NCBI GenBank assembly: GCA_965250285.1
Contig: OZ252299.1
Span: forward strand, 4,768,001 to 4,832,000
DNA length: 64,000 bases
From: Myxococcota bacterium
GTDB taxonomy: Bacteria; Myxococcota_A; UBA9160; UBA4427
Reading direction: 5' to 3'
Shown here: positions 39,501 through 62,863 of the stretch, one piece after another
Layout of the letters: every line of letters starts with the position of its first letter
Position numbering within the stretch: the first letter of the stretch is position 1
Made by a program: the position numbers and the translations under genes
The notes under the pieces: generated by a model
What the model was told of the DNA's origin: nothing
Seen by the model: only the letters and a program-made list of their open reading frames with translations
Database searches by the model: none

Positions 39501-39737
39501 TTGACGTCGATGACGACCTTCATCGGGCTGGTACCGCTGATGTTCGAGGGCGCGGTGGCGGCGCGACCGCTCGTGCCGATGGCGATCGCGCTGGGCTACG
39601 GCGTGCTCTGTGCCGCGGTCGTGACGCTCTTCCTCGTCCCGACCGGCTACGTGATCCTGGCCGACCTCAACCCCGCGATGCGGGCCGAGTTTCGTCGCGA
39701 TGCGCCTCCCGATGCGACGGCCGAGCCCGCCCGCTAG
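36552..39737 (+). CDS. RND efflux permease (AcrB/AcrD/AcrF family)
   Basis: 1061 aa; NPVAANLLM, GILVDDAIVIGE, RFRPIALTSMTT. Confidence 0.93.
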   Translation: MSGVIAWFVHNPVAANLLMMVLVVGGLVALPGIRQEEFPAIDLDMIRVTVEYPGATPEESESSVCLRIEEAIEGTPDVDRMTTVAAEGVCVVSAELIIGGDADQALSEIDNRVQGIDTFPDEAERPLVSKLLARGMALQIALAGDADERTLKVLGQRARDEIAALPGVSQVTLDFARPYEISIEVPEETLRRHGLTLDDVARAVRSSSLDLPGGSVKTSGGEILLRSVGQAYRGEDFADIAVLTRQDGTSVALAEIATIIDGFEDIDLRARFNGKPAVIILVERLGEEDILELVGAVKPWLAEFRTTLPEGIEATIFADASEDLNARLGAMTRNARSGLILVVAILALFLRFRLAMWVAAGVPISLLGAIALFPAFGITISTLTAMAFILVIGILVDDAIVIGEAVHSHEESSESQADAAINGTLEVYIPVFFGVMTTIAAFIPLVIVPGRMGEFFGWLGLTAILCLVFSLVESQLILPAHLAHRRTSSKKGEPNGFVATWQRFQGRMATGLERIGQVHYARALDFAIEWRYVTVAIAIGVVVMTIALFSSGRMRYQFFPAVEGDIVTAFLTMPQGIPLTQTEAAIAQIQAASEELERELVTEYPGIPIVRQTVGTVGSQLNMNGGPPDMGVNIGGAHLASFVLQLHPAAERPIGAVEITRRLREKVGTIPDAVELAFSSDTFSAGDPLNFQLSGSSVEQLTLAAAELRAKLATYRGVTDIADSFRAGKQEVQLSLRDEARPLGLSQIDLARQVRQAFYGDEVQRIQRGRDDVKVMVRYPVEERRTLGSLEEMRIRTPERVEVPFDAVAHASLDRGFATIRRTDRERVVQVTADVDRAIVTPEKVIGEIRVWLPQMLARYPGVTYELDGEQREQSRALGGLIRGVVIALLLIYALLAIPLKSYVQPFVIMSVIPFGAVGAILGHLVMGWDVVFFSVLGIVALSGVVVNASLVLVHYINGQRELGRPLLDCVRAAGIVRFRPIALTSMTTFIGLVPLMFEGAVAARPLVPMAIALGYGVLCAAVVTLFLVPTGYVILADLNPAMRAEFRRDAPPDATAEPAR

Positions 39738-40037
39738 CCACCGGCGCGAGGTCGGGTGCGTCCCACCCCAGCTCACCGCCGTCTGGTCGTCGAAGCTGTC
39801 GACACATCAACCAACGGCTGCCCCAACGTCAGCAGGGGGCTGAACGCCCAAATTGCCCCTAGATTCCCCCGGGCGGCCCGATAGAATTCGGCTGAGTCCG
39901 GTCCTGCCCGCACACCCGGTGCGCGCCTGCGGGCTTGATGAAACGCGCGCATCGCGTTCTGCGTTGCGGCCGGAGCAGGCGCCCGCGCGCCCTGCTCCAA
40001 CAGATAGAGCCAGAAGAACAGAAGGGGGAAGCACCTC

Positions 40038-40775
40038 ATGGACATCATCACGACCGGTACCGGAATCGAGGTTCTGCTTCGCTGGATGCACGTGTTCGCC
40101 GGCGTCACCTGGATCGGCGTCCTCTACTACTTCAACTTCATCCAGACGCCGTTCTTCGGCACCGAGCTCGGCGGTCAGGCCAAGGGGCCGATGACGCGCG
40201 GACTCGTGCCGAACGCGCTTTGGTGGTTCCGATGGGGTGCGATGTTCACCTTCCTCTCGGGCTGGACGATCGTGCTCTACCGCTGGCAGCACCTCGGGAT
40301 TCCGCTGACCGACGGCTACATGACGAAGATCCTCACCGGCGGCCTGATGGGCACGCTCATGTGGTTCAACGTCTGGTTCGTGATCTGGCCGGCCCAGCAG
40401 GTCGTGATCAAGAACGCCGAGCAGGTCGCGGCGGGGGGCGACCCGATCCCCGAAGCGGCCGCGCGGGGTGGCAAGGCCGGCATGGCCTCGCGCACCAACA
40501 CCCTGTTCTCGCTCCCGATGCTCTTCTTCATGGTCGCCGCCGCGAACCTGCCGAGCCTCGCCGCCGGCAACAACGATCTGGTCTACTGGATCTGCGCGAT
40601 CGTCGTGATCGGCGCCGTCGAGATCAACGGACTGATCGGGCCGGGTGCAGCGACCCAGAAGCCGCTGACCACGGTGTCGGGCACGATCCACTTCGGCCTC
40701 GTTCTGTGGCTGGTGCTCTACCTGATCGGCGCGTTCGTCAACCCGGCGACGGGCCTCGCCGCCATGATGAACTAG
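40038..40775 (+). CDS. Multi-pass membrane protein of the PuuD/urate-hydroxylase N-terminal-like family
   Basis: RWMHVFAGVTWIG..YYFNF, LWWFRWGA, MWFNVWFVIWPAQ, SRTNT. Function uncertain. Confidence 0.7.
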   Translation: MDIITTGTGIEVLLRWMHVFAGVTWIGVLYYFNFIQTPFFGTELGGQAKGPMTRGLVPNALWWFRWGAMFTFLSGWTIVLYRWQHLGIPLTDGYMTKILTGGLMGTLMWFNVWFVIWPAQQVVIKNAEQVAAGGDPIPEAAARGGKAGMASRTNTLFSLPMLFFMVAAANLPSLAAGNNDLVYWICAIVVIGAVEINGLIGPGAATQKPLTTVSGTIHFGLVLWLVLYLIGAFVNPATGLAAMMN

Positions 40776-40820
40776 CGCCGCGGGCCAGCCACGCGCTGGC
40801 GCAACGTGGCCCCGAATCAC

Positions 40821-40856
40821 GACGCCCCCCGAGCCCACGACGGGTCGGGGGGCGTC
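40821..40856. terminator. Hairpin between convergent genes
   Basis: GACGCCCCCCGA ... TCGGGGGGCGTC, 12-bp perfect stem. Confidence 0.6.
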
Positions 40857-40914
40857 GGCGTTTCGGCTTGCGCAGCGTCGGGGGTCTTGGCGTTTCGGCC
40901 TGGTTGGCTGCGGC

Positions 40915-43900
40915 TCAGGCGCGCCGGCGCTCGGTCCGAGGGCGAGCCTCGTCTTCGTCGTCTCGGTCGTCTTCGTCGTTCTCGACGGCCGCCTCGTCGA
41001 GCATCGATGCGAGATCGCTGTTCGCTTCGCCTTCGAGCGCCTCGACGTCGCGCTGCTCGCGCCGATTCGCGCGGCGTGCACTCTCGGAGACGGCCAGCAC
41101 CGCGAGCGGATCGACGCGGCTCCACACCGGCAACGCCGACACTGCGATCGCGAGCAGCGAGGTGCCACGGGTGATCATCGCCAGCACGGCGGCCGAGAAG
41201 GCCAGCCCCGTGCGCTCCACAGCCCTGACCTTGACCTCGATCTCGTCCTGCTGCCGGTCGGCGGTCTCGCGCAGCTGGGTTTCGACGTCGTGCAGGGCAT
41301 CCTGCAGCTGCGCGTCGGCGAAGCCCGCGGCCAGGCGCGAGGCCTCGTCGATGTCTTCCTCGTCATCGTCGCGCGTGAACGAGAGCAGGCTCCCCGAGAG
41401 ATCGCCTTCGGTCGACCCGATCAAAGGCACGTTGGCGCTCTGAGAGATCGAAACGCCATCGAGTTGCGCCGCGTCGGAGCCCGCACCGGCATCCTCCCTG
41501 GCGAGCGGGTCGAATGCCGGGCCCGTTCGCAGGAGCGTCGTCTCGTCTTCGCCGATGCTGGTGTTCGACGTGTCGTCGTCGAGTGTCACCTCGTCGTCGG
41601 TGGGCTCTTCGGCGGTCTTCTCGTCTTCGGCTTCGGTCGGCTCGTCCTCGCTCGACTGCTTCTCGTCCTCGGGCTCGGACGCGTCCTCGTCATCGAGCGG
41701 ATCGACCGCAATGGGCGCCACCTCGATCGATACCGACGACTGCCCTGTGAGCGGCCCCCCCGCGCCCACGCCCCCGAGATCATCGACCGCGAGCGACATC
41801 GTCACCGTACCGGACGGAATCGCCAGCGCGGTGAAGGCCGCACCGTCGAGGGCCGTGTTCACCTGCGACAGCGTGCCCTCGAAGCGCATGTGCGCATCGG
41901 CCACGCCATCCCCTTCCAGAAAGTGCAGGCCTGCCGTCGAGCCGAGGCTGAGCTCACCCGCAGTGACCGACAGCGTGACCTCAACCAGTCCGTCCCCGGC
42001 GTCGAGATCGCCGATCGCGATCGCGTTCACGCCCGCTGACGAAAAGGTGATCGTCTCACCCGGCGCCAGGGTCTGTCCGGAAGGCATCGATACCCAGGGC
42101 GACTCGTTCGCATCGAGCAGGTGGACCGTCACGTCGGCCTCGGTCTGCAGGCCCCCGTCGTCCGTGACACGCACGCGAAGTACGCGGCTCCCGACCGTCT
42201 CGTGGTCGAGAGCCGCCCCGTCGACAACGCGCAGTTCACCCGTCCCGGAGCCGAGGCTGAAGGCCCCATCACTGTTGCCCGACACGATCTGGTACGACAA
42301 CACGCCCGAGCCATCGGGGTCACTCGCAGCCACCGTGCCCACGAGCGACCCCGCCACCGGCCCTTCGAGCAGATCGAAGGATTGATCGACGAACGCTGCG
42401 GGTGTGTTCGTGGCGACCACCCCGACGGTCGTCGTCGCGACCGTGCTCGGATCGGAACCGTCATCGACGACGAATCGAATCAGGCGGTCCGTCGTCGTCG
42501 GGTCGAGCGACGCGTTGTCGTAGGTCACCGTTCGGAGCACCTGCTCGAAGTCGGCCTGGGTGCCAGAACCATCGAGCGTCAGCATCCGCGAGCCGGCGTC
42601 CCAGGTCGCGTTCAGCGCGGTGCCCGTGACGTCCGCCGAGAGCGCCTCGAGGGCGCCATCGGGCATCGCGTCGACCGTGATGCGGATCGCGACGGGCACG
42701 TCGCCGTCGATGTCGGTGATCGACGCGTCCGAGTCGGCGACCGCGACCGGGCCGAGGCCCTCGGTGAAGCTCGCCTGGTAGTCGAGCCCGGCGCCCACGT
42801 CGTCGTTCGCGTCGAGATCGAGCACGGGAGCGTCGTTCTCGGGTGTGACCGTGATCGCGAAGGTCGCCGACCCGCTCGACCAGACGTGTCCATCGTTCAC
42901 ACTGAACTCGAACGAGGTGTCTCCGTTCCAGTCGGCCGGCGGCTCGTACGTCAGCAGGCCCGCATCGATGTCGAGTCTCGAGATCTCGTCACCCACCGAC
43001 ACCGCGCCACCCGAGAGGAGCAGGCCGCCGACCGGGAGCGAGTCGATGCGCACGCGATCGATCGAGTCGCCGGCGTCGGGGTCGGTCCCCCCGATCGAAA
43101 CGACGACCGAGCCATCCTCGGGCAACGACGTAGTGCCCGGCGTCGCCGTGGGCGCCGAGTTGGCACCGTAGAGCAGACCGACCTCGAAGTGCGTGAGCGC
43201 GCGGTCGTAGACGCGCAGATCGTCGATACCGCCCGTAAACTTGTACTGATCGCGGCCCGTCCGGTCACCGCCGATGTTGAGATGGTCGCTGACCGCAACG
43301 GGTCCCACGACGTCGGTGGCCGTCGCCACCGCCACGCCGTCGACCCACAGCGTCATCGTCGTGCCCTCGCGGTGTACGACGAGGTGGTGCCAGGCGCCAT
43401 CGTCGAGGTCGTCGAGGTAGATGCCGGTTTGCCACTGCTGCGATCCGTTCTCGAGATACGAGACGAGCTGACGATCGGGCGTTTCGTCGAACTGCAGGTT
43501 CCAGTGGTTGACCGAGCCGGTCGCGTTGGTCGCGGTGTAGATCCCGGCCCAGTCGTTCTGCACCGGGTCGGGGCGAATCCAGACCGATGTCGTGTAGTCG
43601 CCGGCGAGCACGGGCACGTCGCCCGAGCCCGTGACGATCATGTCGTCGATGCCGTCGGGATCGAACGCGTGCGAGCCGACCTGCCCCGGCACGAACTCGT
43701 CCCCCTCGCCCCCCTGGAGCGTGCCGTCGTAGCCGCCGGGACCGTCGTCCGTGGCGTCGCCGTCGAACGTCCAGTGCCCGACGAGGCTGGTCACCGTGGC
43801 CGTGAGGGATTGCGTCGTGCCGTCGTAGACGACCTCGGCCTGCGTCCGGTTCATGATCGACGTGGCGAAGCCGCCGTCCTCGACGTCGAGCGCGCCGAGT

Positions 43901-45129
43901 GCTGCATCGACGCGAAGGGTCCCGTCGAAGCCGGCGCCGGCGTCGAACACCTCGAGATCCCCGGTGACCTGGACGTCGGCCGTGGTGATCGAAGCCAGCA
44001 CGAGCTGGCCGACGTCGGCCTCGAGCGTCATCGCACCCGAGGGCGCACCGCCGACGTGGACGCTGCCGATGCGACCGCCCCCCCCGCCCACGACCACGCG
44101 ATCGACCGTCGCGCCGGCCTCGACCGTCAGGCTCGAGACGTCGGCGTCACTCGAGAGCTCGGCGAGATCGGCATCGAAGCGCAGCGTGCCGACGACGAGG
44201 CCCCCGTTCAGATCGCTCAGCACGACTCGGGTCGAGTCGTCGGTGCCCGCCGAGCCCGAGATGCTGAGCGTGTCGCTCGCGCCGTCGTAGCTGAAGTCGA
44301 TCGTGCCCGGCCCGGTCACGTCGATGCCGAAGCGGATCGCGCCATCGTCCCACGTGCCGGAGCCCGAGAACCCGGCCTCGCCGTGATCGACGAGCTGACC
44401 CGACCAGGTCTCGAGCGCCGCGGAGACGAGGCCCGTCTCGGCGACCGCGTCGTCCGCACCGCTCGAGGCCGCCTCGAGGATCCAGTCGCCCCCGCGACCC
44501 GTGACGTCGTCCGATGCGAAGACGTCGGCGCCCGTCAGATCGGCCACGCGATCGAGCAAGGCCTGCCCGGACACGACGTCGCCCGCGACGTCACAACCGA
44601 AGAACGAGATGTCGGCGCCCGAGACGAGGTGCGCGGAGAGATCACGCCAGGCCTCGGCGTTGGCTTCGCTCATGTCGGCGGTCAAGCCGCCCGGACCCCA
44701 AGCGACGCGCCCTTCCGAGCCATGCGTCAGTACGGAGAGCGATGCGATCGGCTCGCCGAGCGAGCCGGCGAGACCGCGCACCTCGGCCAGCACCTGCGTG
44801 ACGTCCTCGCGGTCGGCATCGAAGAGCACGAGCGTCGCGCCCGCATCGACCGCGCCGGCGAGCACGTCGACGTCTTCGAGATTGCGATCGATCAGGACGA
44901 TGCGCAGGCCGTCTTCGCCCGACTTCGGAGCGTCGGCGGTCTCCGGTGAGACGGGCGGATCGAGGTCGACCGGATCGCTCGGCCAGACCGGCGCCGGAGC
45001 TTCGACGTCGTCGACGCCGGGATCGACGAGCCAAGGCGCGACGTCCGCCGAGTAGAGTCGACGGCGCTCGAGCTGTTCGATGTGACGCGAGGGCGAAGCC
45101 TCGCTCTGCGGTCGATCGCGCCGTCTCAA
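40915..45129 (-). CDS. Large acidic surface/secreted protein: LEPR-XLL-like N-motif, DUF4347, LamG, Ig/cadherin repeats
   Basis: EQLERRRLYSAD; THGSEG...FFGCDVA...TGADVFASDDVTG.GGDWILE; LVGHWTFD...WHHLV...GGIDDLRVYDRAL; NSAP/NDAP/SDPDG cadherin-like motifs. Confidence 0.88.
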   Translation of the reverse strand: MRRRDRPQSEASPSRHIEQLERRRLYSADVAPWLVDPGVDDVEAPAPVWPSDPVDLDPPVSPETADAPKSGEDGLRIVLIDRNLEDVDVLAGAVDAGATLVLFDADREDVTQVLAEVRGLAGSLGEPIASLSVLTHGSEGRVAWGPGGLTADMSEANAEAWRDLSAHLVSGADISFFGCDVAGDVVSGQALLDRVADLTGADVFASDDVTGRGGDWILEAASSGADDAVAETGLVSAALETWSGQLVDHGEAGFSGSGTWDDGAIRFGIDVTGPGTIDFSYDGASDTLSISGSAGTDDSTRVVLSDLNGGLVVGTLRFDADLAELSSDADVSSLTVEAGATVDRVVVGGGGGRIGSVHVGGAPSGAMTLEADVGQLVLASITTADVQVTGDLEVFDAGAGFDGTLRVDAALGALDVEDGGFATSIMNRTQAEVVYDGTTQSLTATVTSLVGHWTFDGDATDDGPGGYDGTLQGGEGDEFVPGQVGSHAFDPDGIDDMIVTGSGDVPVLAGDYTTSVWIRPDPVQNDWAGIYTATNATGSVNHWNLQFDETPDRQLVSYLENGSQQWQTGIYLDDLDDGAWHHLVVHREGTTMTLWVDGVAVATATDVVGPVAVSDHLNIGGDRTGRDQYKFTGGIDDLRVYDRALTHFEVGLLYGANSAPTATPGTTSLPEDGSVVVSIGGTDPDAGDSIDRVRIDSLPVGGLLLSGGAVSVGDEISRLDIDAGLLTYEPPADWNGDTSFEFSVNDGHVWSSGSATFAITVTPENDAPVLDLDANDDVGAGLDYQASFTEGLGPVAVADSDASITDIDGDVPVAIRITVDAMPDGALEALSADVTGTALNATWDAGSRMLTLDGSGTQADFEQVLRTVTYDNASLDPTTTDRLIRFVVDDGSDPSTVATTTVGVVATNTPAAFVDQSFDLLEGPVAGSLVGTVAASDPDGSGVLSYQIVSGNSDGAFSLGSGTGELRVVDGAALDHETVGSRVLRVRVTDDGGLQTEADVTVHLLDANESPWVSMPSGQTLAPGETITFSSAGVNAIAIGDLDAGDGLVEVTLSVTAGELSLGSTAGLHFLEGDGVADAHMRFEGTLSQVNTALDGAAFTALAIPSGTVTMSLAVDDLGGVGAGGPLTGQSSVSIEVAPIAVDPLDDEDASEPEDEKQSSEDEPTEAEDEKTAEEPTDDEVTLDDDTSNTSIGEDETTLLRTGPAFDPLAREDAGAGSDAAQLDGVSISQSANVPLIGSTEGDLSGSLLSFTRDDDEEDIDEASRLAAGFADAQLQDALHDVETQLRETADRQQDEIEVKVRAVERTGLAFSAAVLAMITRGTSLLAIAVSALPVWSRVDPLAVLAVSESARRANRREQRDVEALEGEANSDLASMLDEAAVENDEDDRDDEDEARPRTERRRA

Positions 45130-45250
45130 GACCGGCTCCCCCGCGCGACACCGACAGACCGGCTCGCGGATAGGGTGATATTCCCCACATTCTCATCGGC
45201 GGCTCGGTGGAAGGCCTGAAGGCCGCGGCGCCGCCCACGGGTGCGGCCGC

Positions 45251-46756
45251 TCAGCTTGCGTCTTCGTCGCCTTCGACTTGCTCGAAGCCCGTCACTCGGT
45301 TGCGTCCCGTCTGCTTCGAGACGTAGAGCGCCTGGTCGGCCTGGTCGACCAGGGTGTAGAGGCTGTCGGCGCCGTGTTCGCGCAGGCTCGCGAGGCCGAA
45401 GCTCGCCGTGATCGGCACGGCCGCGAAGCCGTCGGCGCCGATGCTGCGACGCCAGCGCTCGGCCATCGAACGGGCCTCTTCGGGCGACATCCCGGGCAAC
45501 AGGACGCAGAACTCCTCACCGCCGTAGCGGCAGACACGCTCGCCGTCGGGTGACTGACTGAGCAGAGCGGTCGCCACGGCTCGAATGACTTCGTCGCCGG
45601 TCTGGTGACCGTGGTCGTCATTGACGCGCTTGAAGTGATCGATGTCGACCATGACGCAGCAGAGGTCGTCCCCTCGACGCTGCGCAGCCTCGACCTCGAT
45701 CTCGCCGGTCTCGAGGAAGCTGCGGCGGTTCGCCGCACCGGTGAGCGGATCGCGCCGCGCGAGCACCCGAAGCTCGTCGTTCTGCAATCGGATCTCGTCG
45801 CGCGACTTCTCGAGCAGCGCGAGGGCGTTCTCCAGCTCGCGGCTCTTGGCCTCGAGCTGGGTGATGTCGTCGAAACTCGCGATCGCCCCGCGCATCTTGC
45901 CGGCCCCGTCGAGCACCGGTGCGCCGTTGACCATGAAGGTGCGCACTTCGTCCTCGTCCCGCAGACACAGCGCGGCGCCCGTCGTCGTCGACTGGTCGGC
46001 GAGGGCGTCGTTCCACGGCATCGAGCGTGCCGGCTCGAACGAGCCGGGCACGAGCCAACCGAGCCCCGACGCCTTGCGCCCGACGAGCTTCTCGCTCGAT
46101 TCGCCGACGCGCTCGGCGAACGCGCGGTTCGCCAGCACGATGCGCTCGCCCCGATCGACGAGCAGCACGCCCTCCGACATGAGATCGAGGGCCGCCTGGA
46201 CGCGGGGGGGAATGACCGACGAAGGGTCGAGATGTCGAAGTGTTCGCCGCAGATACAGCGCGTACGCGACGAAGCTCGCGACCCCGAAGACCAGCACCAG
46301 TCGCACGACGGGACGGTGCCAGAGCGAAGCGACGAACGAGGCCGACACGGGCTCGACGAAGCGCACCTCGAGCGTGGCCCACGGCGCACCGCCACGCGTC
46401 AGCTCGACGACGATGTGCGTCAGGTTCGTGCCGGGTTCGACGTTTTCGTCCCACAGCGCGCGGTGCTGCTGGCTCGCGACCATCAATCGGCCGTAGCGAT
46501 CGCGCAGGCCCACCGAGAGCACGTCGTCTTCGGCCTCGACGGCGTGGTCGAGCTCGACCCGCAACCGGGCGAGCCCGGCCCTCGAAGGGTCGGTCGTTGT
46601 ACGCATCGCCAGCTGCTCGACGATGCGCGATCGGCGCTCGACGACCGGATCTTCACTGATCGGGACCAGGCCGAGCAGATCGAGGCCGAACAGGATCGAG
46701 ATGGTCAGGCAGACGAGGCCGAGGGAGAGACGAAAGAGCGCGGACCGATGCCACAT
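45251..46756 (-). CDS. Membrane diguanylate cyclase (2 TM, PAS, GGDEF)
   Basis: DPLTGAANRR, DIDHFKRVNDDHGH, RYGGEEF, ADQALY. Confidence 0.93.
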   Translation of the reverse strand: MWHRSALFRLSLGLVCLTISILFGLDLLGLVPISEDPVVERRSRIVEQLAMRTTTDPSRAGLARLRVELDHAVEAEDDVLSVGLRDRYGRLMVASQQHRALWDENVEPGTNLTHIVVELTRGGAPWATLEVRFVEPVSASFVASLWHRPVVRLVLVFGVASFVAYALYLRRTLRHLDPSSVIPPRVQAALDLMSEGVLLVDRGERIVLANRAFAERVGESSEKLVGRKASGLGWLVPGSFEPARSMPWNDALADQSTTTGAALCLRDEDEVRTFMVNGAPVLDGAGKMRGAIASFDDITQLEAKSRELENALALLEKSRDEIRLQNDELRVLARRDPLTGAANRRSFLETGEIEVEAAQRRGDDLCCVMVDIDHFKRVNDDHGHQTGDEVIRAVATALLSQSPDGERVCRYGGEEFCVLLPGMSPEEARSMAERWRRSIGADGFAAVPITASFGLASLREHGADSLYTLVDQADQALYVSKQTGRNRVTGFEQVEGDEDAS

Positions 46757-46766
46757 GGCGCCCTCG

Positions 46767-47843
46767 TCAGTTCATGCCGTGTCGGTGATCGCCGGCGTCG
46801 GGCACGAAACGCACCTGGCACCGCAGACCACTCGGAATCGCATGGTCGGCGTTCGGCAGCTCGAGCCAGACGCCAAAGGTGCCACTGGTCGGATCGACGA
46901 CCCGGTCGGCGATCTCGACACGCGCGAGCTGGACTCCGAGCTCGGGGAGCTCGGGCGAAACCTCGGCGACCATCCCGGCGCGGATGCGCCCGAACTCGCT
47001 CGCGGGCACGATCACTTCGACTCGCAGCGGGTCGATCTCGGCGACGGTGAGCAGCGTCTCTTCGCGCGCGATCTCGCCGGGCAGCTTGAGCTGCTCGACG
47101 ACGACGCCGTCGATCGGGCTGCGGATGATCCTGCGTTCGAGACGAGCACGCGCCTCATCGAGCTCGAGCGTTCGCAAGCGCTTCAGGTCGCGCGCCTGTT
47201 CGAGCTCGGCGCGCGCCAGAGCCGCCTCGGTGCGCGCCTCTTCGGCGACGTCGATCGAGACGACCGATTCGGTGTGCAGGTTGGTCGCGCGGCGTAGTCG
47301 GCTCTCGCCGAGCGCGAGGCTCGCGGCGCGTGCGCGCACCGAGCTCTGCATGTTCGCGCGCGCTTCGGCGACGGAGACCGCGGCGCGCTCGACGTCCGAC
47401 TCGAGCTCGACCAGGACCTGGCCGGCCTTGACCTCGTCGCTGCGGTCGACGTGCACCGATTGAACGACGGCCGAGAGCGCGCTGCTGACGTCGATCACGC
47501 GCCGAGGCTCGATTAGGCAATCGAACTCGCCCCCGACGCTCGACGCGGCTGCCATCGACCGATGCGGCACGGGCTCGTCTTCGGCGAGCACCTCGTCGCT
47601 CCAGTTCGGTGCGATCGAAGGCGCCGGGTCGACGGCCGCGGGCGGCGTCGTATCGCTTTGCGCACTCGCCGTCGACGGCGGTGCAGCGGCCACGCGCCCG
47701 GCCGGGGCCTCGCTCGCCGAGGCCGGCTTCGAGGCGAGCAGGGTCGACGGGCTACGATCGACCAGATTCATGCTGACGAGCGCGACCAGCGCAGCGACGA
47801 GCAGGATGCCCGCCGTCCTTCGCGCCCACCGGCTCTTCATCAT
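46767..47843 (-). CDS. Periplasmic adaptor (HlyD/RND MFP family)
   Basis: N-terminal TM; CLIEP, VKAGQVLVEL, RSPIDGVV, IDPLRVEV, VVDPTSGTF. Confidence 0.87.
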   Translation of the reverse strand: MMKSRWARRTAGILLVAALVALVSMNLVDRSPSTLLASKPASASEAPAGRVAAAPPSTASAQSDTTPPAAVDPAPSIAPNWSDEVLAEDEPVPHRSMAAASSVGGEFDCLIEPRRVIDVSSALSAVVQSVHVDRSDEVKAGQVLVELESDVERAAVSVAEARANMQSSVRARAASLALGESRLRRATNLHTESVVSIDVAEEARTEAALARAELEQARDLKRLRTLELDEARARLERRIIRSPIDGVVVEQLKLPGEIAREETLLTVAEIDPLRVEVIVPASEFGRIRAGMVAEVSPELPELGVQLARVEIADRVVDPTSGTFGVWLELPNADHAIPSGLRCQVRFVPDAGDHRHGMN

Positions 47844-48080
47844 GTGCAGTCGCACGCTCAGCCCCGCCTCTGCCAGATCGACGCAGATGGAACACGCATC
47901 GATCTCGCACTCGGTCGGACGCTCCGACAGCGTCCACGGCCTTATGTTTCGGTCGACCGGTGGCTTGACCCAAGCCGAAGCGCGCGCCGACGAACCGAAC
48001 GAAGAGCGACCTCGCGCATGCGCAAGAGACACGCAGATGTGATGCAGATCGAGCGCAGGGATCGGGCGGTGTGGAGCGGT

Positions 48081-50243
48081 TCAGACGTCGAAGTGACCGA
48101 GGAAGAGACGAGCGAGGCTGCGGCCGATGCGCGGGGCCAGCGGCAGCTGACCGTGATCGAATCGAACGAAGACGCGCTCACCGATCGCAACCTGTTCGGG
48201 CTGCTCGGCGAGCTCGACCTCGAGCAGGAAGACGGGCTCGAGCGCAACGGTCCCGGCCTCATCGTTCGGATCGATGGCGAAGGGTCCCCCACCCAGCGTG
48301 CCCAGGGCTGCGCTGGGTAGATCGGTCGTCGCTGCCGGCACGGCCCGTACGAGCCGCGCGGCGCGGACGCGGCCGAGGCTGCCCGCCAACCGAAGCTCGA
48401 TCGCGTCGGTGCGCTGCCGCACGTCTTCGATGGCGTGCTGGGGGACGGCGACGCGCGCCGTGACGGCCCCGGCGCCGACGACGTGGCCCAGCAGCTCACC
48501 CTGGCGAACCATGCGGCCAACGGGATCGAGCGCACCGGCGAGGAGAAAGCGCCCGGCGCCCGGGCTTCGCACGACCAGCGCATCGCGACGCGCCTGACCG
48601 AGCGCCCGCTCGGCTCGCACCGTGTCGAGTTCGGCCTCGGTGGTGCGTGCACGAACGAGGTCGTCGGCCCGCTCGGCGAACATGCGCAGCTCGAGCGCAT
48701 CGATGCGTGCATCGAGCACTGCGAGCTCGGCGTCTAGGAGCGGCTCCTCGAGCACGAAGAGCGGCTGCCCTTCGATCACTTCTTCTCCCGGTGCCACCTG
48801 TTGTCGCACGATCAGCCCATCGACCTCGGCGCGCACCTGCGCACGCTCGGGCGGCCAGACGACACCCTGAGTGCGAGAGTGGAAGGGCAGCGGCAACGCG
48901 AAGAGCAGCACGGCAGCGAGCACGACCGCAGCCGCGGTGATCGAGACCGCACGCACGCGGCCGGCAGAGAGTCGCGGACTCGTCGCGACGAAGGCGAGAC
49001 CCCGCGCCAGCGGCAAACCGATCTGAAGACCGATCGTCAGCGCCGCAATCGCCACGCCCACGATGGGCAACGTCGTCGCAACGAACCACCCGATGCTGAT
49101 CCCGAGCACGACGCGATAGATGGCCGATGCGATGCCGTAGGCGATGAGCCAGGGGCGCTCGCTCTCGGTGTCGACGGTCGCGCGCACGTCGGCGAGACCG
49201 AAGACGCGGCGCTGAATCGATCCGATCAGGTGGGCGGACGCTCGCTGCTGCAGATTCGGAATCTCGAGCGCGTCGGCGAGCGCGTAGTACCCATCGAACT
49301 TGAGCAGCGGATTCGCATTGAAGAGCAGCGTCGACAGCGTCCCGATCCAGATCATCTGGAGCGCGATCGCGCGAACCCAGCCATCGGCCACCGAAGACCA
49401 GACGAAGAACGCGATCGCGGCGAGCGCGAGCTCGGCGGCGATCCCGGCGAGACTGACCACGATGCGACGCGTCTTGTCGGGCAGGATCGACACGCCCGAT
49501 ACGTCGATGTACGGCAGCGGTGCGAAGACCAGGAAGGCGAGGCCGGTCTCTCGAACCTCGACGCCGCACACCCGAGCGGCGCACCCGTGCGCGAGCTCAT
49601 GCAGCGCCTTCGCGAAGACGTAGACGAGCGGCAGCACGAGCCAGCCGCCCCCGCCGAGCAGTCGCGTCGGCAGATCGTGGGCGAGCTCGGGCCACACCGG
49701 GATCGAGGCGAGCAGCGCCGTCACCACGAGCAGGGCCCAGAAGAACGCGCCGCCGCGCGTGAAGATCGGCGCTGCGAAAGGCGCGATGCGTTCGAGCAGG
49801 GGGTCGGGGTCGAACAGCGGCACCTTGATCGACAGCGGGCTCAGCAAGCGCATCCAGCGCTGCTGGCCACGTGCGCGGCGACGCTCTCGAAACATCGCTT
49901 CGAGATCGGGGGATACGTCGAGCGACAGCACGTGGGCGCCCTGCAAGAGGCCGATCACGTGCATGGCTTCGGCACGCGACGGCGCGGCCTCCCCGAGCTC
50001 GTCGGCGCAGGCGGTCCAGGCCGCTTCGATGGTGCAGCGCCCATCGAGGCGTGCGACCAGGTTCCAGGCGGCCGCCGAGATGCGATGGCAATCGCCGCGC
50101 ATCGGGTCACGGAGCACGATCCAGCGGCGCCCGCGCACCCGATGTCGCGTCGGCGTCGCCTCGTCTTGCAGGCGCGGCCGGAGCCCACACACCCGCTCCC
50201 ACATCGCCGCATCGTCGTGGCTTCGCGTCGAGTCGGAGCTCAC
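48081..50243 (-). CDS. M50 (site-2) zinc metalloprotease fused to a HlyD-like adaptor domain
   Basis: HELAH zinc motif, NANPLLKFDGYY, several TMs, C-terminal lipoyl/hairpin region; GTGA overlap with the upstream stop. Confidence 0.88.
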   Translation of the reverse strand: MSSDSTRSHDDAAMWERVCGLRPRLQDEATPTRHRVRGRRWIVLRDPMRGDCHRISAAAWNLVARLDGRCTIEAAWTACADELGEAAPSRAEAMHVIGLLQGAHVLSLDVSPDLEAMFRERRRARGQQRWMRLLSPLSIKVPLFDPDPLLERIAPFAAPIFTRGGAFFWALLVVTALLASIPVWPELAHDLPTRLLGGGGWLVLPLVYVFAKALHELAHGCAARVCGVEVRETGLAFLVFAPLPYIDVSGVSILPDKTRRIVVSLAGIAAELALAAIAFFVWSSVADGWVRAIALQMIWIGTLSTLLFNANPLLKFDGYYALADALEIPNLQQRASAHLIGSIQRRVFGLADVRATVDTESERPWLIAYGIASAIYRVVLGISIGWFVATTLPIVGVAIAALTIGLQIGLPLARGLAFVATSPRLSAGRVRAVSITAAAVVLAAVLLFALPLPFHSRTQGVVWPPERAQVRAEVDGLIVRQQVAPGEEVIEGQPLFVLEEPLLDAELAVLDARIDALELRMFAERADDLVRARTTEAELDTVRAERALGQARRDALVVRSPGAGRFLLAGALDPVGRMVRQGELLGHVVGAGAVTARVAVPQHAIEDVRQRTDAIELRLAGSLGRVRAARLVRAVPAATTDLPSAALGTLGGGPFAIDPNDEAGTVALEPVFLLEVELAEQPEQVAIGERVFVRFDHGQLPLAPRIGRSLARLFLGHFDV

Positions 50244-52066
50244 CACCAGCTCCACGCGCCGAGTCGGAGCCAATCGATCAGGCGATGCGTCGCGATCCAG
50301 AGCAGCGGCCGGTCGCCCGCGTCGAGGCGCGCGATGCCCTCCATGCCGGGGCGCAGCCGGTCGTCGGAAGCAAAGGAACCAACGGGGTCGGCCACGAGCT
50401 CGGCCTCGACGCGGAAGTGGTTGCGGCCCCCCTCGGCGACGGTCACTGGCTGAATGCGCGCGATCCGCAGCGGCAGCGGCTGCGCGGGGAGCGCCTGCAG
50501 CTTGAGGTGGCCGAGTCCGCCTTCGGCGATCGCGGCGACGTCGCGCTCGTCGACCTCGAGAATGATCCGATAGCCCCCGCGCGGCGCCAGCTCGAAGAGC
50601 ATCTCGCCGCGCTCCACCGGCGAGCCCAGTCGCTGGGAGAGATCGCCGGCGACCACGACGCCGTCGAACGGGGCCACCAGCGACGTTCGGGCCAGGCGCG
50701 CCTCGACGAGGGCCTGCTCGGCAGCGGCCTGTCGCATCCGGGCGCGCAGGATGCTCGCCTGGCTGCGGTCATGCCGCGCGAGCGCCTCTCGAAACTCGCC
50801 CTCGAGCTCGGCCAGCCGAGCGTCGCCCGTCTGCTGTTCGAGCCGCAGGTCGCGATCGTCGAGGCGAGCAAGGATCTGCCCGGCCTGCACGATCTCCCCC
50901 GCACGCACGTGCGCTTCGGCGACGAAACCGTCCATGCCTGCGACGATGGCCCGCTGCACACGTCCTTCCAGACGCGCATCGGCGCGGACGCGGTACGAGA
51001 CCGGCAGCAATGATGCAAAGAAGATCAGCGCGATCGTCGCATACACGCCGACCTTGAGTCGCGTGTGTCCAGGCCCGAAGAGCGCTTCGACGAACGCATC
51101 GAAGTCGTCGAGGCATCGACGCCAGATGCCGCGCTCGGCTCTTCGCGCGAGCAGAAGAGCGGGGCCGACACGACGCGCCGCGAGCTCGCAGAGGCGTCGG
51201 GTCGATCGATCGCTCGCGGCACCGGCCGGCGCCTCGAAGGCGAACGCGCAGCGCTCGCCGTGTGATTCGACCGGCACACTGAAGACGTCGCACGCGCTCG
51301 ACGTGCGTTGCCACGCGCGGTGCGCCCACGGCCGCACCGGCGCGACTTCGTCGCTCGCATCATCGTCGGCTTCGCGCGCGTACGCGGCGAGAGGCTGCCC
51401 CGCATCCATCGACTCTTCGACGGCCGCGCGCCACGGCTGCAGCCAGCGTGCGCCGCGATCGAAGTCGAGGCCGTTGGAGACCGCGATGACGCGGGCCGAT
51501 GCGTCGTCGAGCACGAAGAACCCTGCGCGACTGCACGGCGTCATCGCGACGAGGCGCGCGAGCGCACCGGTCGCCGACTCTTCCAGCGTCGCGCCCGATC
51601 GAGCAGCCTCGAGCACGGCGTCGGCTGCGTTCGACTCGGCGACCCGCGCGCCCGCGTCTCGCAGTGCGTACAGCCAGGCGCCCTCGGCGCGCAGCGCCTC
51701 GCAGACCCGCTTGATGCGATCCTCTGCGTTCGCCTCGTCGCCTGGATCGAGCTCGACGGCAACGACGAGCGCGGGCTCGGACTCGCTCGCCGGAGGCCCT
51801 GCACCTCGGTTGGCGGCACGATCGACCGGGACCCCGACGAGCGCAATGCGTTCATCGTCGCCGACGCGCAGCGACCGCACGACGCGGCGGCCATGGCGCG
51901 CGGCCGACTCGGCCGTCTCTTGCAGCCTCGGCTCGACCGGTGCGTCTTCGGGCCAGCACACGAGGACGTCGGGTTCGCCCGGCGCGGGCCACAGCAGGCA
52001 GGCCGAGCGCACGCCCTCGAGCGTGTCGCAGCGCCGACCCAGCCACCCGCGAATGTCGTCGCGCAC
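50240..52066 (-). CDS. GAF-like domain + HlyD family adaptor protein
   Basis: N-terminal GAF-like region, one TM, AGMDGFV...VRAGE, APFDGVV.GDL, LRPGMEG; GTG 52066 after GGAGGGG. Confidence 0.82.
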   Translation of the reverse strand: MRDDIRGWLGRRCDTLEGVRSACLLWPAPGEPDVLVCWPEDAPVEPRLQETAESAARHGRRVVRSLRVGDDERIALVGVPVDRAANRGAGPPASESEPALVVAVELDPGDEANAEDRIKRVCEALRAEGAWLYALRDAGARVAESNAADAVLEAARSGATLEESATGALARLVAMTPCSRAGFFVLDDASARVIAVSNGLDFDRGARWLQPWRAAVEESMDAGQPLAAYAREADDDASDEVAPVRPWAHRAWQRTSSACDVFSVPVESHGERCAFAFEAPAGAASDRSTRRLCELAARRVGPALLLARRAERGIWRRCLDDFDAFVEALFGPGHTRLKVGVYATIALIFFASLLPVSYRVRADARLEGRVQRAIVAGMDGFVAEAHVRAGEIVQAGQILARLDDRDLRLEQQTGDARLAELEGEFREALARHDRSQASILRARMRQAAAEQALVEARLARTSLVAPFDGVVVAGDLSQRLGSPVERGEMLFELAPRGGYRIILEVDERDVAAIAEGGLGHLKLQALPAQPLPLRIARIQPVTVAEGGRNHFRVEAELVADPVGSFASDDRLRPGMEGIARLDAGDRPLLWIATHRLIDWLRLGAWSWW

Positions 52067-52319
52067 TCGTTTCCCCTCCCCGGACAGGGACTTGCGCCTC
52101 TCTCTTCGGCCTGCTGACGCTGGGGATTGAGCCCGCTGCACAGGCCTCCGAGCCGGGCGGCCTGCGACCGCGCGAGCTGCCGGGATTCCACAACGCCGAG
52201 CGCCCGGCGCACCTCACCGAAACGCCTCGAAGACGCCCACCCCGAATCGAAACGGCTCGATGCGATTCCGCTCCGCCCACCCCTCTGGGCGGTCGATACG
52301 CCCTGCGAGGCAACCTGAC

Positions 52320-54851
52320 GTGACGAGCCCCATCGAAAGATCGGTCCGATCGACCACCCTCCTGCCGGTGATCGTCGCAGCGCTGGCGTGCGCGGCGGTG
52401 GCCTTCGACCTCGTCGGCGTCCACCGCGATCTGGCGGCGTTCGCCAACGCGCAGCGGCAAGCCCTGGCCCGCTCGGCTTTCGCGCTCGCCTGGGTCGAAT
52501 CGAGCGTCGCCCACGATCCCCGCGTCGTACCGAGTGGTGCCGACGCCGAACGCTGGGCACCGACGCGGACGCGTCTGCGTCAGGCCCTCGCCGAGGCCTT
52601 TCCCGAGGCGGCCGACGCCGAAGCGGTGTGGTCCGAGCGGCAGCACGCGCTCGAGAATCAGCTCGAACGCGCCTACGACCTGCGGGCCGGCGGGCAGACG
52701 GAGGTCTCCGATCGCCTGCTCGAGGACGGTTGGGACCGCTTCGTCGATACGTGGCTGCGCGCCGATCTCGCCGCGACGGTCGCCGAAGCGCTGGCCGACG
52801 CCGATGCCGCCACACACCGAGCCGAGGACGACGCCAATCACTGGCAGTCGCTCGTCACCATCGATGCCCCGGTGCTCGATGCGGCGCTGGCCGATCTTCA
52901 CCGCGCCGTCGCCACCCAGCGCATCGCGAGCGATGCGCTGCACGCAGCCCGCGACGCGCGGCTCGATGGCGCGACGAGCGAACGCGCCCGAGCGAGCCGC
53001 GATCTACTCTCGCGTCGATGGGCGCGCTTCGAGTCGGCCCGCGATCGCGTCGAGCCCGAGCGCGCCGACGCACTGCGTGCGCTGACGACCGCCGTTGCCG
53101 GTGCACCGGGCGCCCGACCCGGAGACGTGCATCAAGCCCTCGACGTCGTGCACGAGTCGATCTGGCCACTCCTGCACGCCGATGCAGAGCGACTTGGCGG
53201 GCGACTCGCCGTCGTCGAGCGCGCCAGCGCGCGCGCCGGTGCGTTCGCCATCGGCTTCGCCCTGGTCGCGCTCGTGCTCCCGGTGATCGGCCTGCTGACC
53301 GTGTCGCGTTGGCTGACGCGCCCACTCGCGCGCACGCTCGATACGGTCGAGGCGATGAGCGAGGGACGCCTCGACGATGCGCGGATGCGCGACTGGCCGC
53401 GCCCGTGGCGCGCGTTCGGCGTCGACCTCGAGCAGATCCGCGGCCGGTTGGAAGAGGCCGAGGGGCATGCGCGCGCACTGCTGCTCTACGACGCGACGAC
53501 CGGGCTCGTCAATCGACGTCACTTCACCGAGCGGCTGAACGCGAGCCTGGTCTCGGCGCGCGTCGATGGTCGAACGATGGCGTTGCTGTCGATCGGGATC
53601 GACGGTCTCGGCGGGCTGCACGAATCGCATCGCCCCGAGGAGTACGACGCGCTGCTGCGTGAAGTCGCGCAGCGTGTGTCTTCGAGCGTCCGCGTGAACG
53701 ACGTGATCGGGCACGGCGCGGGCAGCAGCCCACTGCCGGTGGTCGGACAGACGTCGGAGACCGAGCTCACGGTGCTGCTCACGAAGATCGCGGCGGGCAG
53801 CGACGCCGCCATCGTCGCCGAGCGCACCCTCGGCGCATTCGAGAAGCCGCTCGTCGTCGCCGAGCTCGGCATCGAGTGTACGGTGCAGGTCTCGATCGGC
53901 ATCGCGATCTCACCGGCCGATGGCCGCGACACCGGCGAGCTGCTGCGCAACGCACAGTCGGCCCGGGCCGCTGCACAGGCACGCGGATCGGGCACGGCGC
54001 TCTTCTGCTCCGACGCGCTCAACGCTGCGGCGTCGCGCAAGTACGAGGTGCGGCGACGGCTCGGCCGCGCGCTCGAACGCGACCTGCTCGAGCTCCACTA
54101 CCAGCCGATTCGAGACACGCGATCGGGGCGCGTCACGGCGATCGAGGCCCTGCTGCGCTGGAGCGACGTCGAGTTCGGTCCGATCTCACCCGGCGAGTTC
54201 ATCCCGATCGCCGAAGAGTCAGGCCTCATCTCGACCATCGGTCGGTGGGTGGTGCGTCGAGCGTGCGAAGACATCGTCGGCTGGCGCGAAGCCGGTCTCG
54301 CCCCGGTTCGCGTCTCGATCAATGCGAGCCCGGCGCAGCTGCACGAGAGCGACTTCGCCGACTTCGTACTCGATACGCTCGACGAGATGAAGGTTTCGCC
54401 CGAGGGCATCGAGCTCGAGATCACCGAGAGCGTGGTGATCGAGCAGAACGCGGCGACGGGTGAGACGCTGGGCCGTCTGCACGAAGCCGGCATCGGTCTC
54501 GTACTCGACGATTTCGGGACGGGCTATTCGTCGTTCTCACACCTGCGGCGGTTCCCGATCGAGCGCGTCAAGATCGACCGGTCGTTCATCGCCGAGGTGA
54601 GCGAAGGCGGTGAAGGTGCCGCGCTCACGTCGGCGATTCTCGCGTTCGCATCCAGCCTCGGGTTGCCGGTCGTGGCCGAGGGCGTCGAGACCGATCTGCA
54701 GGCCGACTTCCTCATGCAGATGGGCTGCGACGAGATGCAGGGCTATCTGATCAGCCAGGCGGTTTCACCGACCGAGTGTGCTCGCTTCTTCGAGCTCGAG
54801 AAGCCCGAAGCCGAAGCGGACAGCAGCGGCGGCGGCGAGCTCGACGACTAG
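52320..54851 (+). CDS. Membrane c-di-GMP phosphodiesterase (HAMP-like, degenerate GGDEF, intact EAL)
   Basis: IEALLRW, ELEITES, DDFGTGYSS, KIDRSF, AEGVET, QGY; the GGDEF position reads TSETE. Start approximate. Confidence 0.88.
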   Translation: MTSPIERSVRSTTLLPVIVAALACAAVAFDLVGVHRDLAAFANAQRQALARSAFALAWVESSVAHDPRVVPSGADAERWAPTRTRLRQALAEAFPEAADAEAVWSERQHALENQLERAYDLRAGGQTEVSDRLLEDGWDRFVDTWLRADLAATVAEALADADAATHRAEDDANHWQSLVTIDAPVLDAALADLHRAVATQRIASDALHAARDARLDGATSERARASRDLLSRRWARFESARDRVEPERADALRALTTAVAGAPGARPGDVHQALDVVHESIWPLLHADAERLGGRLAVVERASARAGAFAIGFALVALVLPVIGLLTVSRWLTRPLARTLDTVEAMSEGRLDDARMRDWPRPWRAFGVDLEQIRGRLEEAEGHARALLLYDATTGLVNRRHFTERLNASLVSARVDGRTMALLSIGIDGLGGLHESHRPEEYDALLREVAQRVSSSVRVNDVIGHGAGSSPLPVVGQTSETELTVLLTKIAAGSDAAIVAERTLGAFEKPLVVAELGIECTVQVSIGIAISPADGRDTGELLRNAQSARAAAQARGSGTALFCSDALNAAASRKYEVRRRLGRALERDLLELHYQPIRDTRSGRVTAIEALLRWSDVEFGPISPGEFIPIAEESGLISTIGRWVVRRACEDIVGWREAGLAPVRVSINASPAQLHESDFADFVLDTLDEMKVSPEGIELEITESVVIEQNAATGETLGRLHEAGIGLVLDDFGTGYSSFSHLRRFPIERVKIDRSFIAEVSEGGEGAALTSAILAFASSLGLPVVAEGVETDLQADFLMQMGCDEMQGYLISQAVSPTECARFFELEKPEAEADSSGGGELDD

Positions 54852-55234
54852 AAGAGAGCGAGCAGCACCGCCGACCAGGCCGCGCGCAGCAGCAGCGCCA
54901 GATTCGCCAGCCACCCGAGCACGAAGCCGATCGTGCGCTTGGTCGGATCGGCCACGTAAGAGACGGCATAGATCGGTCGAGCGACGGCGAACGCCAGCCC
55001 GCCGACCAGCACGAAGGTCGTCGCCTGGAAGTACGCGCAGAGCCAGAGCGCCGGTAGGAAGATCACGAACTGCTCGACGGTGTTCAGCTGAACGCGGTAC
55101 CAGCGCTCGTAGTGCTCGTCGCCCACGACCTTGGGCGCGGGAATGCCCGCCTTCTGGCGCGCGGCACCCACGAGGCCCTGGAACACGAAGTACTCGATCA
55201 AGACGATCACGGTGATCAGTGCGGCCCAGTGCAT
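54848..55234 (-). CDS. MAPEG family membrane protein
   Basis: VGAARQKAGIPAP, ERWYRVQLNTVEQ, ARPIYAVSY; GGAGG RBS. Confidence 0.88.
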   Translation of the reverse strand: MHWAALITVIVLIEYFVFQGLVGAARQKAGIPAPKVVGDEHYERWYRVQLNTVEQFVIFLPALWLCAYFQATTFVLVGGLAFAVARPIYAVSYVADPTKRTIGFVLGWLANLALLLRAAWSAVLLALF

Positions 55235-55298
55235 GGCATGCCTCCGGTCGTGGGCCGTGCGAGGAAGGTCGGCCCGCGCGCTGATATACTCGCATGCC

Positions 55299-62362: not shown

Positions 62363-62863
62363 TCAGCTCTCGGCGTCGAGGGCCGTCGCGAACATCTCGT
62401 CGACGACCTGCTGCTGCGCGGCGTTCAGCTGCCCGAACTTGCAGCCCATGCCCATCTGGCCGTTCTCGGCGTTGACCCCGGTCGAGGCCACCTCGGCCGG
62501 CAGCTCGACGGTGCCGGCGCCCGGCCCGACGCGAATCAACAGCATGATCTCGGTGCCGACCTCGACCGCATGGTCGGTGGCGATGAAGAGGCCGCCGCGC
62601 GAGATGTTGCGGATCAGCGCGCTGCCGAGATCGCCGTGGTTCGAGTACTCGACGAGCATCCGCGTGGGCAGGCGGAGCGTCTGGCGCCGCTCTCCGCCCG
62701 GCGGGCGCGTGCCCTGCGGAAAGCTCTTTTCGAGCGTCGCGCGCAGCTCGGCCCAGCGCTCGAATTCACCCGGCGTCACTGAATCCTGGGTGCGCTTCTT
62801 CTCGAGCCTCCCGTACTCGCGGACGAGGGGGAGCAGTCGCTGGACGGAGTCAGGGCTCGGCAT
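62363..62863 (-). CDS. PilZ-domain protein
   Basis: RRQTLR (RxxxR) and NISRGG (D/NxSxxG) c-di-GMP motifs; GMGCKF. Confidence 0.85.
   Translation of the reverse strand: MPSPDSVQRLLPLVREYGRLEKKRTQDSVTPGEFERWAELRATLEKSFPQGTRPPGGERRQTLRLPTRMLVEYSNHGDLGSALIRNISRGGLFIATDHAVEVGTEIMLLIRVGPGAGTVELPAEVASTGVNAENGQMGMGCKFGQLNAAQQQVVDEMFATALDAES

Follow-up and report, generated by a model that had tools for sequence, protein, structure and literature searches.

How a bacterium might export a large adhesin-like protein from a locus with three HlyD-type adaptors and no transport ATPase is the question raised by a cassette of six genes in the 64,000 nt window analysed here (contig OZ252299.1 of assembly GCA_965250285.1, positions 4,768,001 to 4,832,000, from a member of the Myxococcota). 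The cassette encodes a GAF-HlyD adaptor, an M50 site-2 protease fused to HlyD, a stand-alone membrane fusion protein (MFP), a diguanylate cyclase, a 1404-aa adhesin-like protein (the cargo) and a divergently transcribed EAL protein; it looks intact and likely exports a leader-tagged surface protein. A module of GAF-HlyD, M50-HlyD, a secondary SecA_DEAD protein (here SecA2) and HlyD, with no ABC transporter, has been described previously, and the accessible text of that paper proposes, without experiment, that SecA_DEAD is the ATPase and M50 the pore or ABC substitute (Kamneva, Poudel & Ward, 2015; PMC4452313). An earlier model reading of the DNA (the first-pass annotation) had M50 replace the ABC protein as the inner-membrane unit, which is thus not new, having been proposed in that accessible text in 2015 (PMC4452313). 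What is new relative to the published module is that secA2 is absent from both the locus and the assembly, a loss which suggests that the motor may be optional. The label 'ATPase-less' used in that annotation holds in the sense that a dedicated ATPase is absent from locus and assembly, but it does not describe the normal design of the module, being the derived outcome of a secA2 loss. The reading that we tentatively prefer, at a little short of an even chance, is a working exporter for the neighbouring LEPR-XLL protein that has no motor of its own and borrows its TolC from elsewhere. In the literature searched we found no experiment on the module and no secA2-less form, subscription journals being mostly uncovered and Fig. 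S13 of Kamneva et al., a gene-presence map, possibly bearing on the point.

The genome (G000; G numbers denote compared genomes, L numbers compared loci and X1 to X4 sequencing runs) is a single contig of 6.25 Mb. A search for an unlinked secA paralogue, suggested by the first-pass annotation, returned only the canonical SecA, which is the sole genomic match to PF07517 (SecA_DEAD); tblastn with 16 SecA2 queries, together with a profile search over 41,598 frames, gave no further SecA2 in the genome. A search of the 237-nt M50-MFP spacer for a secA2 remnant gave only chance-level matches among those listed, and since no remnant is left the loss appears to be old. One X1 contig covers positions 40000-56000 with 0 differences and contigs from X2 and X3 overlap across the M50-MFP junction; given a single contig and a junction covered in three runs without differences, secA2 is absent from its usual position. 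Several loose contig ends in X2 and X3 start with GATC, which we take to be as in restriction-based proximity-ligation libraries, and the junction is unaffected by them. It is very improbable that the organism has a secA2 that the assembly lacks. The genome is 95.4 % complete, and a single study produced the three covering runs, from which the assembly itself may have been made, so a gap of this kind is conceivable; with the locus on one contig and the junction covered three times, however, the gene could lie only in an unassembled region or on a plasmid.

The relatives show that this loss has parallels. The M50 fusion is present in 41 of the 169 genomes of the class, and those without a SecA2-type match are the present genome, G019, G038 and the fragmentary G179; there was likewise no SecA2-type match in 28 M50-negative genomes chosen from the class lists. 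In close relatives the order is EAL (divergent), GAF-HlyD, M50-HlyD, secA2, MFP, cyclase and cargo (L013, L017, L079 and L080/L081), the EAL gene of L013 (which is G046) being co-oriented, unlike that of the others. In G027, the tree sister of the present locus, the genes follow this order too; the GEGKT and DEAD motifs of its SecA2 are intact, and the cargo frame, of 2236 aa, is found on a second contig. The M50-HlyD protein here is 44-46 % identical to SecA2-linked orthologues and is nested among them in our trees, all of which are quick or FastTree trees. On a 130-row FastTree, 12 secA2-less rows require 9 changes, at least 6 of them forced by starred branches (10 rows are unlabelled and L072 is counted as lacking the gene), and a single origin of seven secA2-less rows is rejected in a 20-row subset (p-AU 0.0008); on the evidence of these trees, secA2 was lost several times independently. 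L070, L071 and L217, a distant M50-HlyD subtype (~30 % identity), form a fully supported clade with M50 proteins from three families and the MFP gene directly after M50, the L217 cargo carrying both a LEPR tag and RTX repeats; for this lineage, G178 has secA2 at another copy of the module. L176:13644-22091 is an independent secA2-less locus of GAF, M50, MFP and LEPR cargo (~1500 aa). In L074 (from G019, 94 % complete), GAF-HlyD, an MFP-like gene and M50 accompany a cargo that has DUF4347 and an LETRRVL tag and no C-terminal motif of the type described below; the only SecA of that genome is canonical. SecA2-like frames without Walker A (GEGKT) or DEAD lie between M50 and MFP at L072:8297-9712 (-) in G038 and at L216:~8750-10531 (+) in G163 (HHalign probability 90 %, E-value 1.5e-6). 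Because the M50 proteins of L072 and L216 are sisters with 100 % support, a clade of pseudo-ATPase SecA2 proteins seems to exist, and both this lineage and that of L070/L071/L217 look long-lived.

The association with the cargo family is tight. At E≤0.01, LEPR-XLL proteins were matched in 27 of 32 M50-positive genomes vs none of 28 M50-negative ones, with the reservation that kin are not independent, and three weak matches (E-values 0.02-0.08) occur among the latter. The co-occurrence survey that the first-pass annotation had asked for shows M50-HlyD tracking LEPR-XLL proteins across the class, and a conserved gene unit whose likely cargo is the large protein is supported. The six open reading frames lie where that annotation had placed them, as do the GTGA overlap between GAF-HlyD and M50-HlyD and the intact HELAH and NPLLKFDG motifs (Table 1). 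Every frame of the locus is open, with a third-position GC of 0.83-0.87, and the M50, GAF and cargo proteins are each single-copy in the genome. The likely MFP start is chosen because third-position GC is 0.86 downstream of it and 0.71 in the upstream extension. No sigma-70-like promoter was found at the locus and terminators occur at chance level; repeats there were set aside as GC-rich chance matches.

Table 1. Features of the cassette, in window coordinates
Feature	Position	Strand	Basis or remark
GAF-GAF-TM-HlyD adaptor, 608 aa (TM, transmembrane segment)	50240..52066	-	GTG start 52066, stop 50240; HlyD_3 E 4e-18
RRE-like domain + M50 site-2 protease + HlyD fusion, 720 aa	48081..50243	-	GTG start; PF02163
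PqqD/RRE-like domain, residues ~12-110, predicted leader-binding	49914..50210	-	Profile and model comparison
HELAH zinc motif, residues 215-219	49587..49601	-	NPLLKFDG at residues 311-318 of the same M50 protein
M50-MFP spacer, 237 nt, where relatives have ~2-kb secA2	47844..48080	-	Contig-covered
Stand-alone membrane fusion protein (MFP)	46767..47843	-	TIGR01730 above cut-off; likely start ATG 47843
PAS-GGEEF diguanylate cyclase, two TM, motif intact	45251..46756	-	Pfam/NCBIfam and motif
Likely cargo, 1404 aa: LEPR-XLL tag, DUF4347, LamG, Ig/cadherin, acidic linker, hydrophobic C-terminal motif	40915..45129	-	
LEPR-XLL tag IEQLERRRLYSAD of cargo	45034..45084	-	
DUF4347 of cargo, His136/Cys179, likely CPD-like (cysteine protease domain) 	44398..44901	-	
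Acidic low-complexity linker of cargo	41320..41694	-	Pro/Ala-rich or acidic in 6/6 relatives examined
C-terminal helix + hydrophobic RGG...LPAW..DP motif, candidate membrane or channel anchor	41083..41319	-	
GGDEF (degenerate)-EAL phosphodiesterase-like protein, two TM, divergent	52260..54851	+	Start probably near 52320

In the M50 fusion the catalytic residues and the HlyD domain are kept. Residues H215, E216, H219, N311, P312 and D317 are invariant in 44 of 44 sequences, the HExxH and NPxxxxDG motifs sit in a multi-pass membrane domain (M50 model pLDDT 86), and the C-terminal domain has the MFP fold, only MFP matches being found among those listed in a Foldseek search with the whole model. 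The N-terminus is modelled as three strands and three helices in a winged fold, and the profile of this domain family matches PqqD (3g2b, E-value 3.8e-6). The model aligns with TbiB1 (5v1u; Z 8.1, root-mean-square deviation 2.8, 81 aligned residues) and with lasso B1 (6jx3; Z 8.0), values near the ambiguous range, similar scores being reached by unrelated winged helices; the domain is RRE-like and predicted to bind a leader. De novo TIM-barrel matches to the RRE-family and DUF4347 profiles were treated as noise. The best NCBIfam match of the fusion is daptide_HExxH (E-value 1e-44, below its cut-off). The GAF label given by the first-pass annotation to the neighbouring adaptor holds by homology only, there being no Pfam GAF match in this protein at E≤0.1: it is 38-40 % identical over nearly its full length to GAF-positive orthologues, three of the four orthologues tested having GAF matches.

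Divergence in these two proteins is unevenly spread. Identity to the family consensus is 0.41 for the RRE-like domain (median 0.66, fifth percentile 0.47, sister 0.62) and 0.28 for the second GAF domain, GAF2 (median 0.53, sister 0.38), the latter below all 58 comparison rows, while the HlyD parts are close to typical, at 0.53 in the M50 fusion (median 0.54) and 0.60 in the GAF protein (median 0.65, sister 0.56). Drifted cytoplasmic domains beside typical HlyD domains are what would be expected had the conduit been retained after a cytoplasmic partner disappeared.

The cargo has no classical signal peptide and its DUF4347, LamG and cadherin content is confirmed by a Pfam/NCBIfam scan, with a Big_9 match besides; the first-pass annotation was right on these points and missed the N-terminal LEPR-XLL tag, the DUF4347 His/Cys pair and the C-terminal motif. 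The tag (NF012209; 16.3 bits, 17 with neighbours, cut-off 17) is the sole such match in the genome. A LEPR-like pattern was found in none of 257 long frames of this genome, and this pattern also misses the present cargo with its Arg-containing tag. Among the frames of the genome several are very long, reaching 5142 aa; their GC is coding-like and they carry neither an RTX nor a LEPR motif. In place of the Arg of the present tag, I, L or V occurs in each of 25 locus relatives examined (25 of 25). This Arg may not be damage: an Arg at that position is common in planctomycete tags, and the tag of the secA2-less G019 cargo reads LETRRVL. Within DUF4347, His136 and Cys179 (His-Gly ... Gly-Cys, spacing 43) are invariant in 22 of 22 sequences, Cys179 being the only cysteine of the cargo. 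The DUF4347 profile weakly matches Tce1 (PDB 9qpe_G, E-value 8e-4), one family member matches Peptidase_C80 weakly (E-value 0.24), and the ESM Atlas, with PF14252 left out, gave no usable match for the domain. The DUF4347 of Pseudomonas Tce1 is described, in the accessible part of the paper, as a putative TcdB-like cysteine protease (PMC13323088), which makes self-cleavage plausible, and the cargo domain is likely to be a CPD-like autoprotease.

The C-terminal motif (consensus S[IV]GYxxWLxRGGxLxxSxLSxLPAWxxxDPLP) is common to seven relatives and recurs in 4802 clusters (50 % identity) in a profile search at E≤0.001. It lies ≤100 aa from the C-terminus in 149 of the best 150 matches, 24 of which are ≥1500 aa long, with DUF4347 in 21 of these and a LEPR-like tag in 19. 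No Pfam family matches the motif, only unnamed hypothetical clusters were returned by the ESM Atlas, and a single-sequence search with the C-terminal region of the cargo found only itself among 884 candidates. We read the motif as a retention anchor, and it could instead be a substrate of the M50 protease. The cassette would then be a processing or signalling unit, in which the cargo is inserted or tethered in the inner membrane by this motif, M50 releases it by regulated intramembrane proteolysis and DUF4347 removes the leader. The motif has Gly/Pro helix breakers, which are typical of site-2 protease substrates, and its closeness to the C-terminus, the lack of TolC in relatives with the same gene order and the fact that M50 families are known as proteases and not as pores all fit such a unit. 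We consider it improbable nevertheless: three HlyD-type domains of MFP fold and the TolC matches found in 4 of 80 metagenome loci speak against it, and LEPR cargos that have no C-terminal motif exist (L074 and the RTX-bearing L217). In addition, the accessible text of a preprint reports that giant LEPRxLL proteins of Chlorobium leave the cell (bioRxiv 2026.03.19.712371).

An exporter of the preferred kind needs an outer-membrane partner, and the unlinked tolC that the first-pass annotation proposed to look for has candidates: the genome has five TolC-family (OEP) genes, none in the locus and two not beside an obvious pump. The statement in that annotation that the locus lacks ABC, TolC and SecA genes stands, and that on RND permeases holds only in part, since an MFP and AcrB-type pair (35260-39737) lies ~1.2 kb past the cargo stop on the other strand. 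Together with a regulator-like frame it forms a group at 34500-39737 (+) that has no TolC of its own and converges on the cargo gene; because a single one of 187 related loci gave a match to the pair, at 24 %, it looks incidental, and as a partner of the cassette it was rejected for want of conservation there. The 'ABC transporter elsewhere' that the first-pass annotation had named as a possible refutation also has a candidate, an unlinked operon resembling those of type I secretion, with ABC (729 aa), HlyD and TolC genes (G000:C1:5295678-5300700, L214), no C39 domain and no cargo identified; nothing ties it to the present cargo. That the cargo leaves by this operon or by the neighbouring RND pump is, in our estimate, quite improbable. 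The operon does exist, and its ABC protein is nearest to type I secretion permease/ATPases (E-value 7e-44, far below cut-off), but the cargo has no RTX nonapeptide (0 matches to GGxGxDx[LIVF]), LEPR-XLL tracks M50-HlyD and not type I secretion, the genome has neither a TIGR01843 match above cut-off nor a C39 domain, and the RND genes are not conserved beside the cassette.

A number of observations weigh against a working exporter without a motor. SecA2-type matches are present in 37 of the 41 M50-positive genomes. Among 80 metagenome loci secA2 is found in 59 and absent beside M50 in 7, the other 14 ending too soon, so that 59 of 66 informative loci have it, and in the seven that do not it may act in trans; of 27 genome loci, 21 contain secA2, two have its start at the contig end and four are cut. 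PF05402 is matched by 131 of 140 members of the RRE-like family and not by the M50 fusion here, all of whose domains fall below the clade minimum. The drift of the RRE-like domain recurs in L176 and L182, and six of eight other secA2-less M50 proteins show none. In comparison with five or six orthologues, the M50 and GAF proteins have evolved 1.57x and 1.47x faster, the ratios for MFP, cyclase, EAL protein and canonical SecA being 1.26, 1.29, 1.18 and 0.99; the last figure led us to reject co-adaptation of the canonical SecA. The tag of the cargo is marginal, as it barely reaches the cut-off and is absent from a single-protein scan at E≤0.01, and the C-terminal motif is marginally hydrophobic (KD19 >1.6 in 76 of 150). 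Finally, contigs of the close strain sampled in X4 have a depth of 2-3 and leave the junction uncovered, and this strain may still have secA2.

Much of this would also be expected if SecA2 were obligatory and its loss had disabled export, the other genes now slowly eroding or being kept for the cyclic di-GMP (c-di-GMP) enzymes of the operon. We regard such decay as unlikely, though a serious contender. It would account for the change of 51 of 214 otherwise invariant M50 columns here vs 4-21 in each of six orthologues, for the 18 of 131 conserved columns that differ (median 7), for a GAF2 domain that is the most divergent of all rows, for the atypical Arg in the tag, and for a cargo ~800 aa shorter than that of the sister (the frames of G027, G046, G098 and G059 are 2236-3135 aa). 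Speed alone cannot separate decay from a lineage effect, because the SecA2-containing sister is also fast, with an equally long branch (0.82 vs 0.86). Moreover, the loss is old and yet 11 kb of genes have no stop or frameshift, the catalytic residues and HlyD domains are kept with the drift concentrated on the cytoplasmic side, and the secA2-less clades span several families. Of the 40 differences listed for the X4 strain, 22 are in cassette genes, and 19 of these 22 are synonymous. On balance the evidence leans to retained function over slow decay.

How an exporter with no motor of its own might operate can be outlined. In the M50 fusion, the RRE-like domain on the cytoplasmic side would bind the LEPR-XLL tag, M50 would trim the leader, in the way that MpaP acts in daptides, and its membrane part would serve as the inner-membrane gate, with the three HlyD-type domains forming a periplasmic conduit to a TolC encoded elsewhere. 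The chain would exit N-terminus first, pulled by LamG/Ig/cadherin folding outside, a pull that may suffice for so short a cargo, and the housekeeping SecA or the proton-motive force could assist. The linker would span the envelope, the hydrophobic C-terminal motif would hold the protein at the surface, and the DUF4347 His/Cys domain would mature it by self-cleavage. A folding ratchet is favoured since Walker-dead SecA2 persists and the canonical SecA shows no co-adaptation; this energy step is the weakest of the mechanism. A bolder version, which we regard as unlikely, is a leader-directed route across two membranes that is built around an intramembrane protease and has no need of a dedicated ATPase; SecA2, open to loss or catalytic inactivation, would just feed in very long cargo, and folding would draw out short cargo, which its C-terminal anchor would hold and its own DUF4347 protease would mature.

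Control of export by c-di-GMP, as suggested by the first-pass annotation, is possible, though not supported by the present comparison. The GGEEF motif of the cyclase is intact and the EAL protein keeps EAL, DDFGTG and EGVE, its GGDEF domain being degenerate, as in the SecA2-containing sister locus. Cyclase and EAL genes also flank the SecA2-containing relatives L013, L017, L079, L080/L081 and L215, and are lacking from most more distant loci. Within this clade the two genes thus accompany the cassette with and without secA2 and do not mark the motor-less form, and since they occur beside intact secA2 we rejected the idea that c-di-GMP enzymes stand in for SecA2 here. In L176 the cargo gene is followed instead by one for a hybrid histidine kinase, which is similar to the present cyclase in its N-terminal sensor region. 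A stand-alone PilZ protein, a possible c-di-GMP effector, is encoded at 62363-62863 (-) (E-value 2e-12), 7.5 kb from the EAL gene. The frame at 55131-58247 (+) encodes a DUF3857/transglutaminase-like protein with a membrane segment and a helical C-terminal part, a gene that was found beside the cassette in 0 of 187 loci.

Some of the largest bacterial proteins may be secreted through the parent module, which is known from computational description only and whose supposed motor is SecA2. Losses of secA2 in nature, together with its Walker-dead copies, open the energy question to direct test and show which domains (RRE-like and GAF2) are probably turned towards the motor. The present cassette, of ~11 kb and with a cargo of 1404 aa, is small enough for expression in one piece, and two further handles are provided by the His/Cys pair of DUF4347 and the conserved C-terminal motif. 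Should the locus only be decaying, it would be worth no more than a note on the way in which the module disappears.

Several known systems resemble parts of this cassette. Type I secretion (HlyB-HlyD-TolC) of the Lap kind shares HlyD adaptors, a large repeat adhesin without a signal peptide, nearby c-di-GMP enzymes and possibly a retention module; it differs in that here the unit has no HlyB-type ABC protein, the tag is N-terminal where RTX signals are C-terminal, and there is a candidate C-terminal anchor. Retention in Lap systems depends on a LapD-type receptor and a LapG-type periplasmic protease, and no such pair was recognized here (the NF045673 LapD score is 108 vs a cut-off of 1020, and the EAL motifs are intact). 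With Tce1 the DUF4347 of the cargo shares the His/Cys pair, protease activity being unproven for both; here the domain follows the leader of an adhesin-like protein. In daptides, according to the accessible text, the RRE-M50 fusion MpaP removes a leader with the motif ELExMEAP (bioRxiv 2023.03.08.531785). The MpaP family (NF041824) has the same N-terminal RRE fused to M50 and is matched over residues 33-420 of the fusion here, with a score of 153 vs a cut-off of 300; the present protein has an extra HlyD domain, and its substrate would be a 1404-aa protein and not a peptide made on the ribosome and then modified after translation (RiPP). The module of Kamneva et al. is closest, as far as its accessible text goes: its three proteins with HlyD parts are encoded in the order seen here, an ABC transporter is absent and the outer-membrane protein is often encoded elsewhere. 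Its defining secA2 is absent here from locus and assembly, and that text, which names Methylobacterium extorquens AM1, a carrier of the full module, makes no mention of a cargo, a LEPR-XLL tag, an RRE domain or a C-terminal motif (PMC4452313). For the Chlorobium LEPR-XLL proteins, export has been assigned to SapC/TolC/HlyD in a text in whose accessible part 'M50' does not occur (bioRxiv 2026.03.19.712371). The cargo described here shares with LEPR-XLL proteins (NF012209; PF07595) such as Chlorobium Cag_663/665 the N-terminal tag and the lack of a classical signal, and is a small member of this group.

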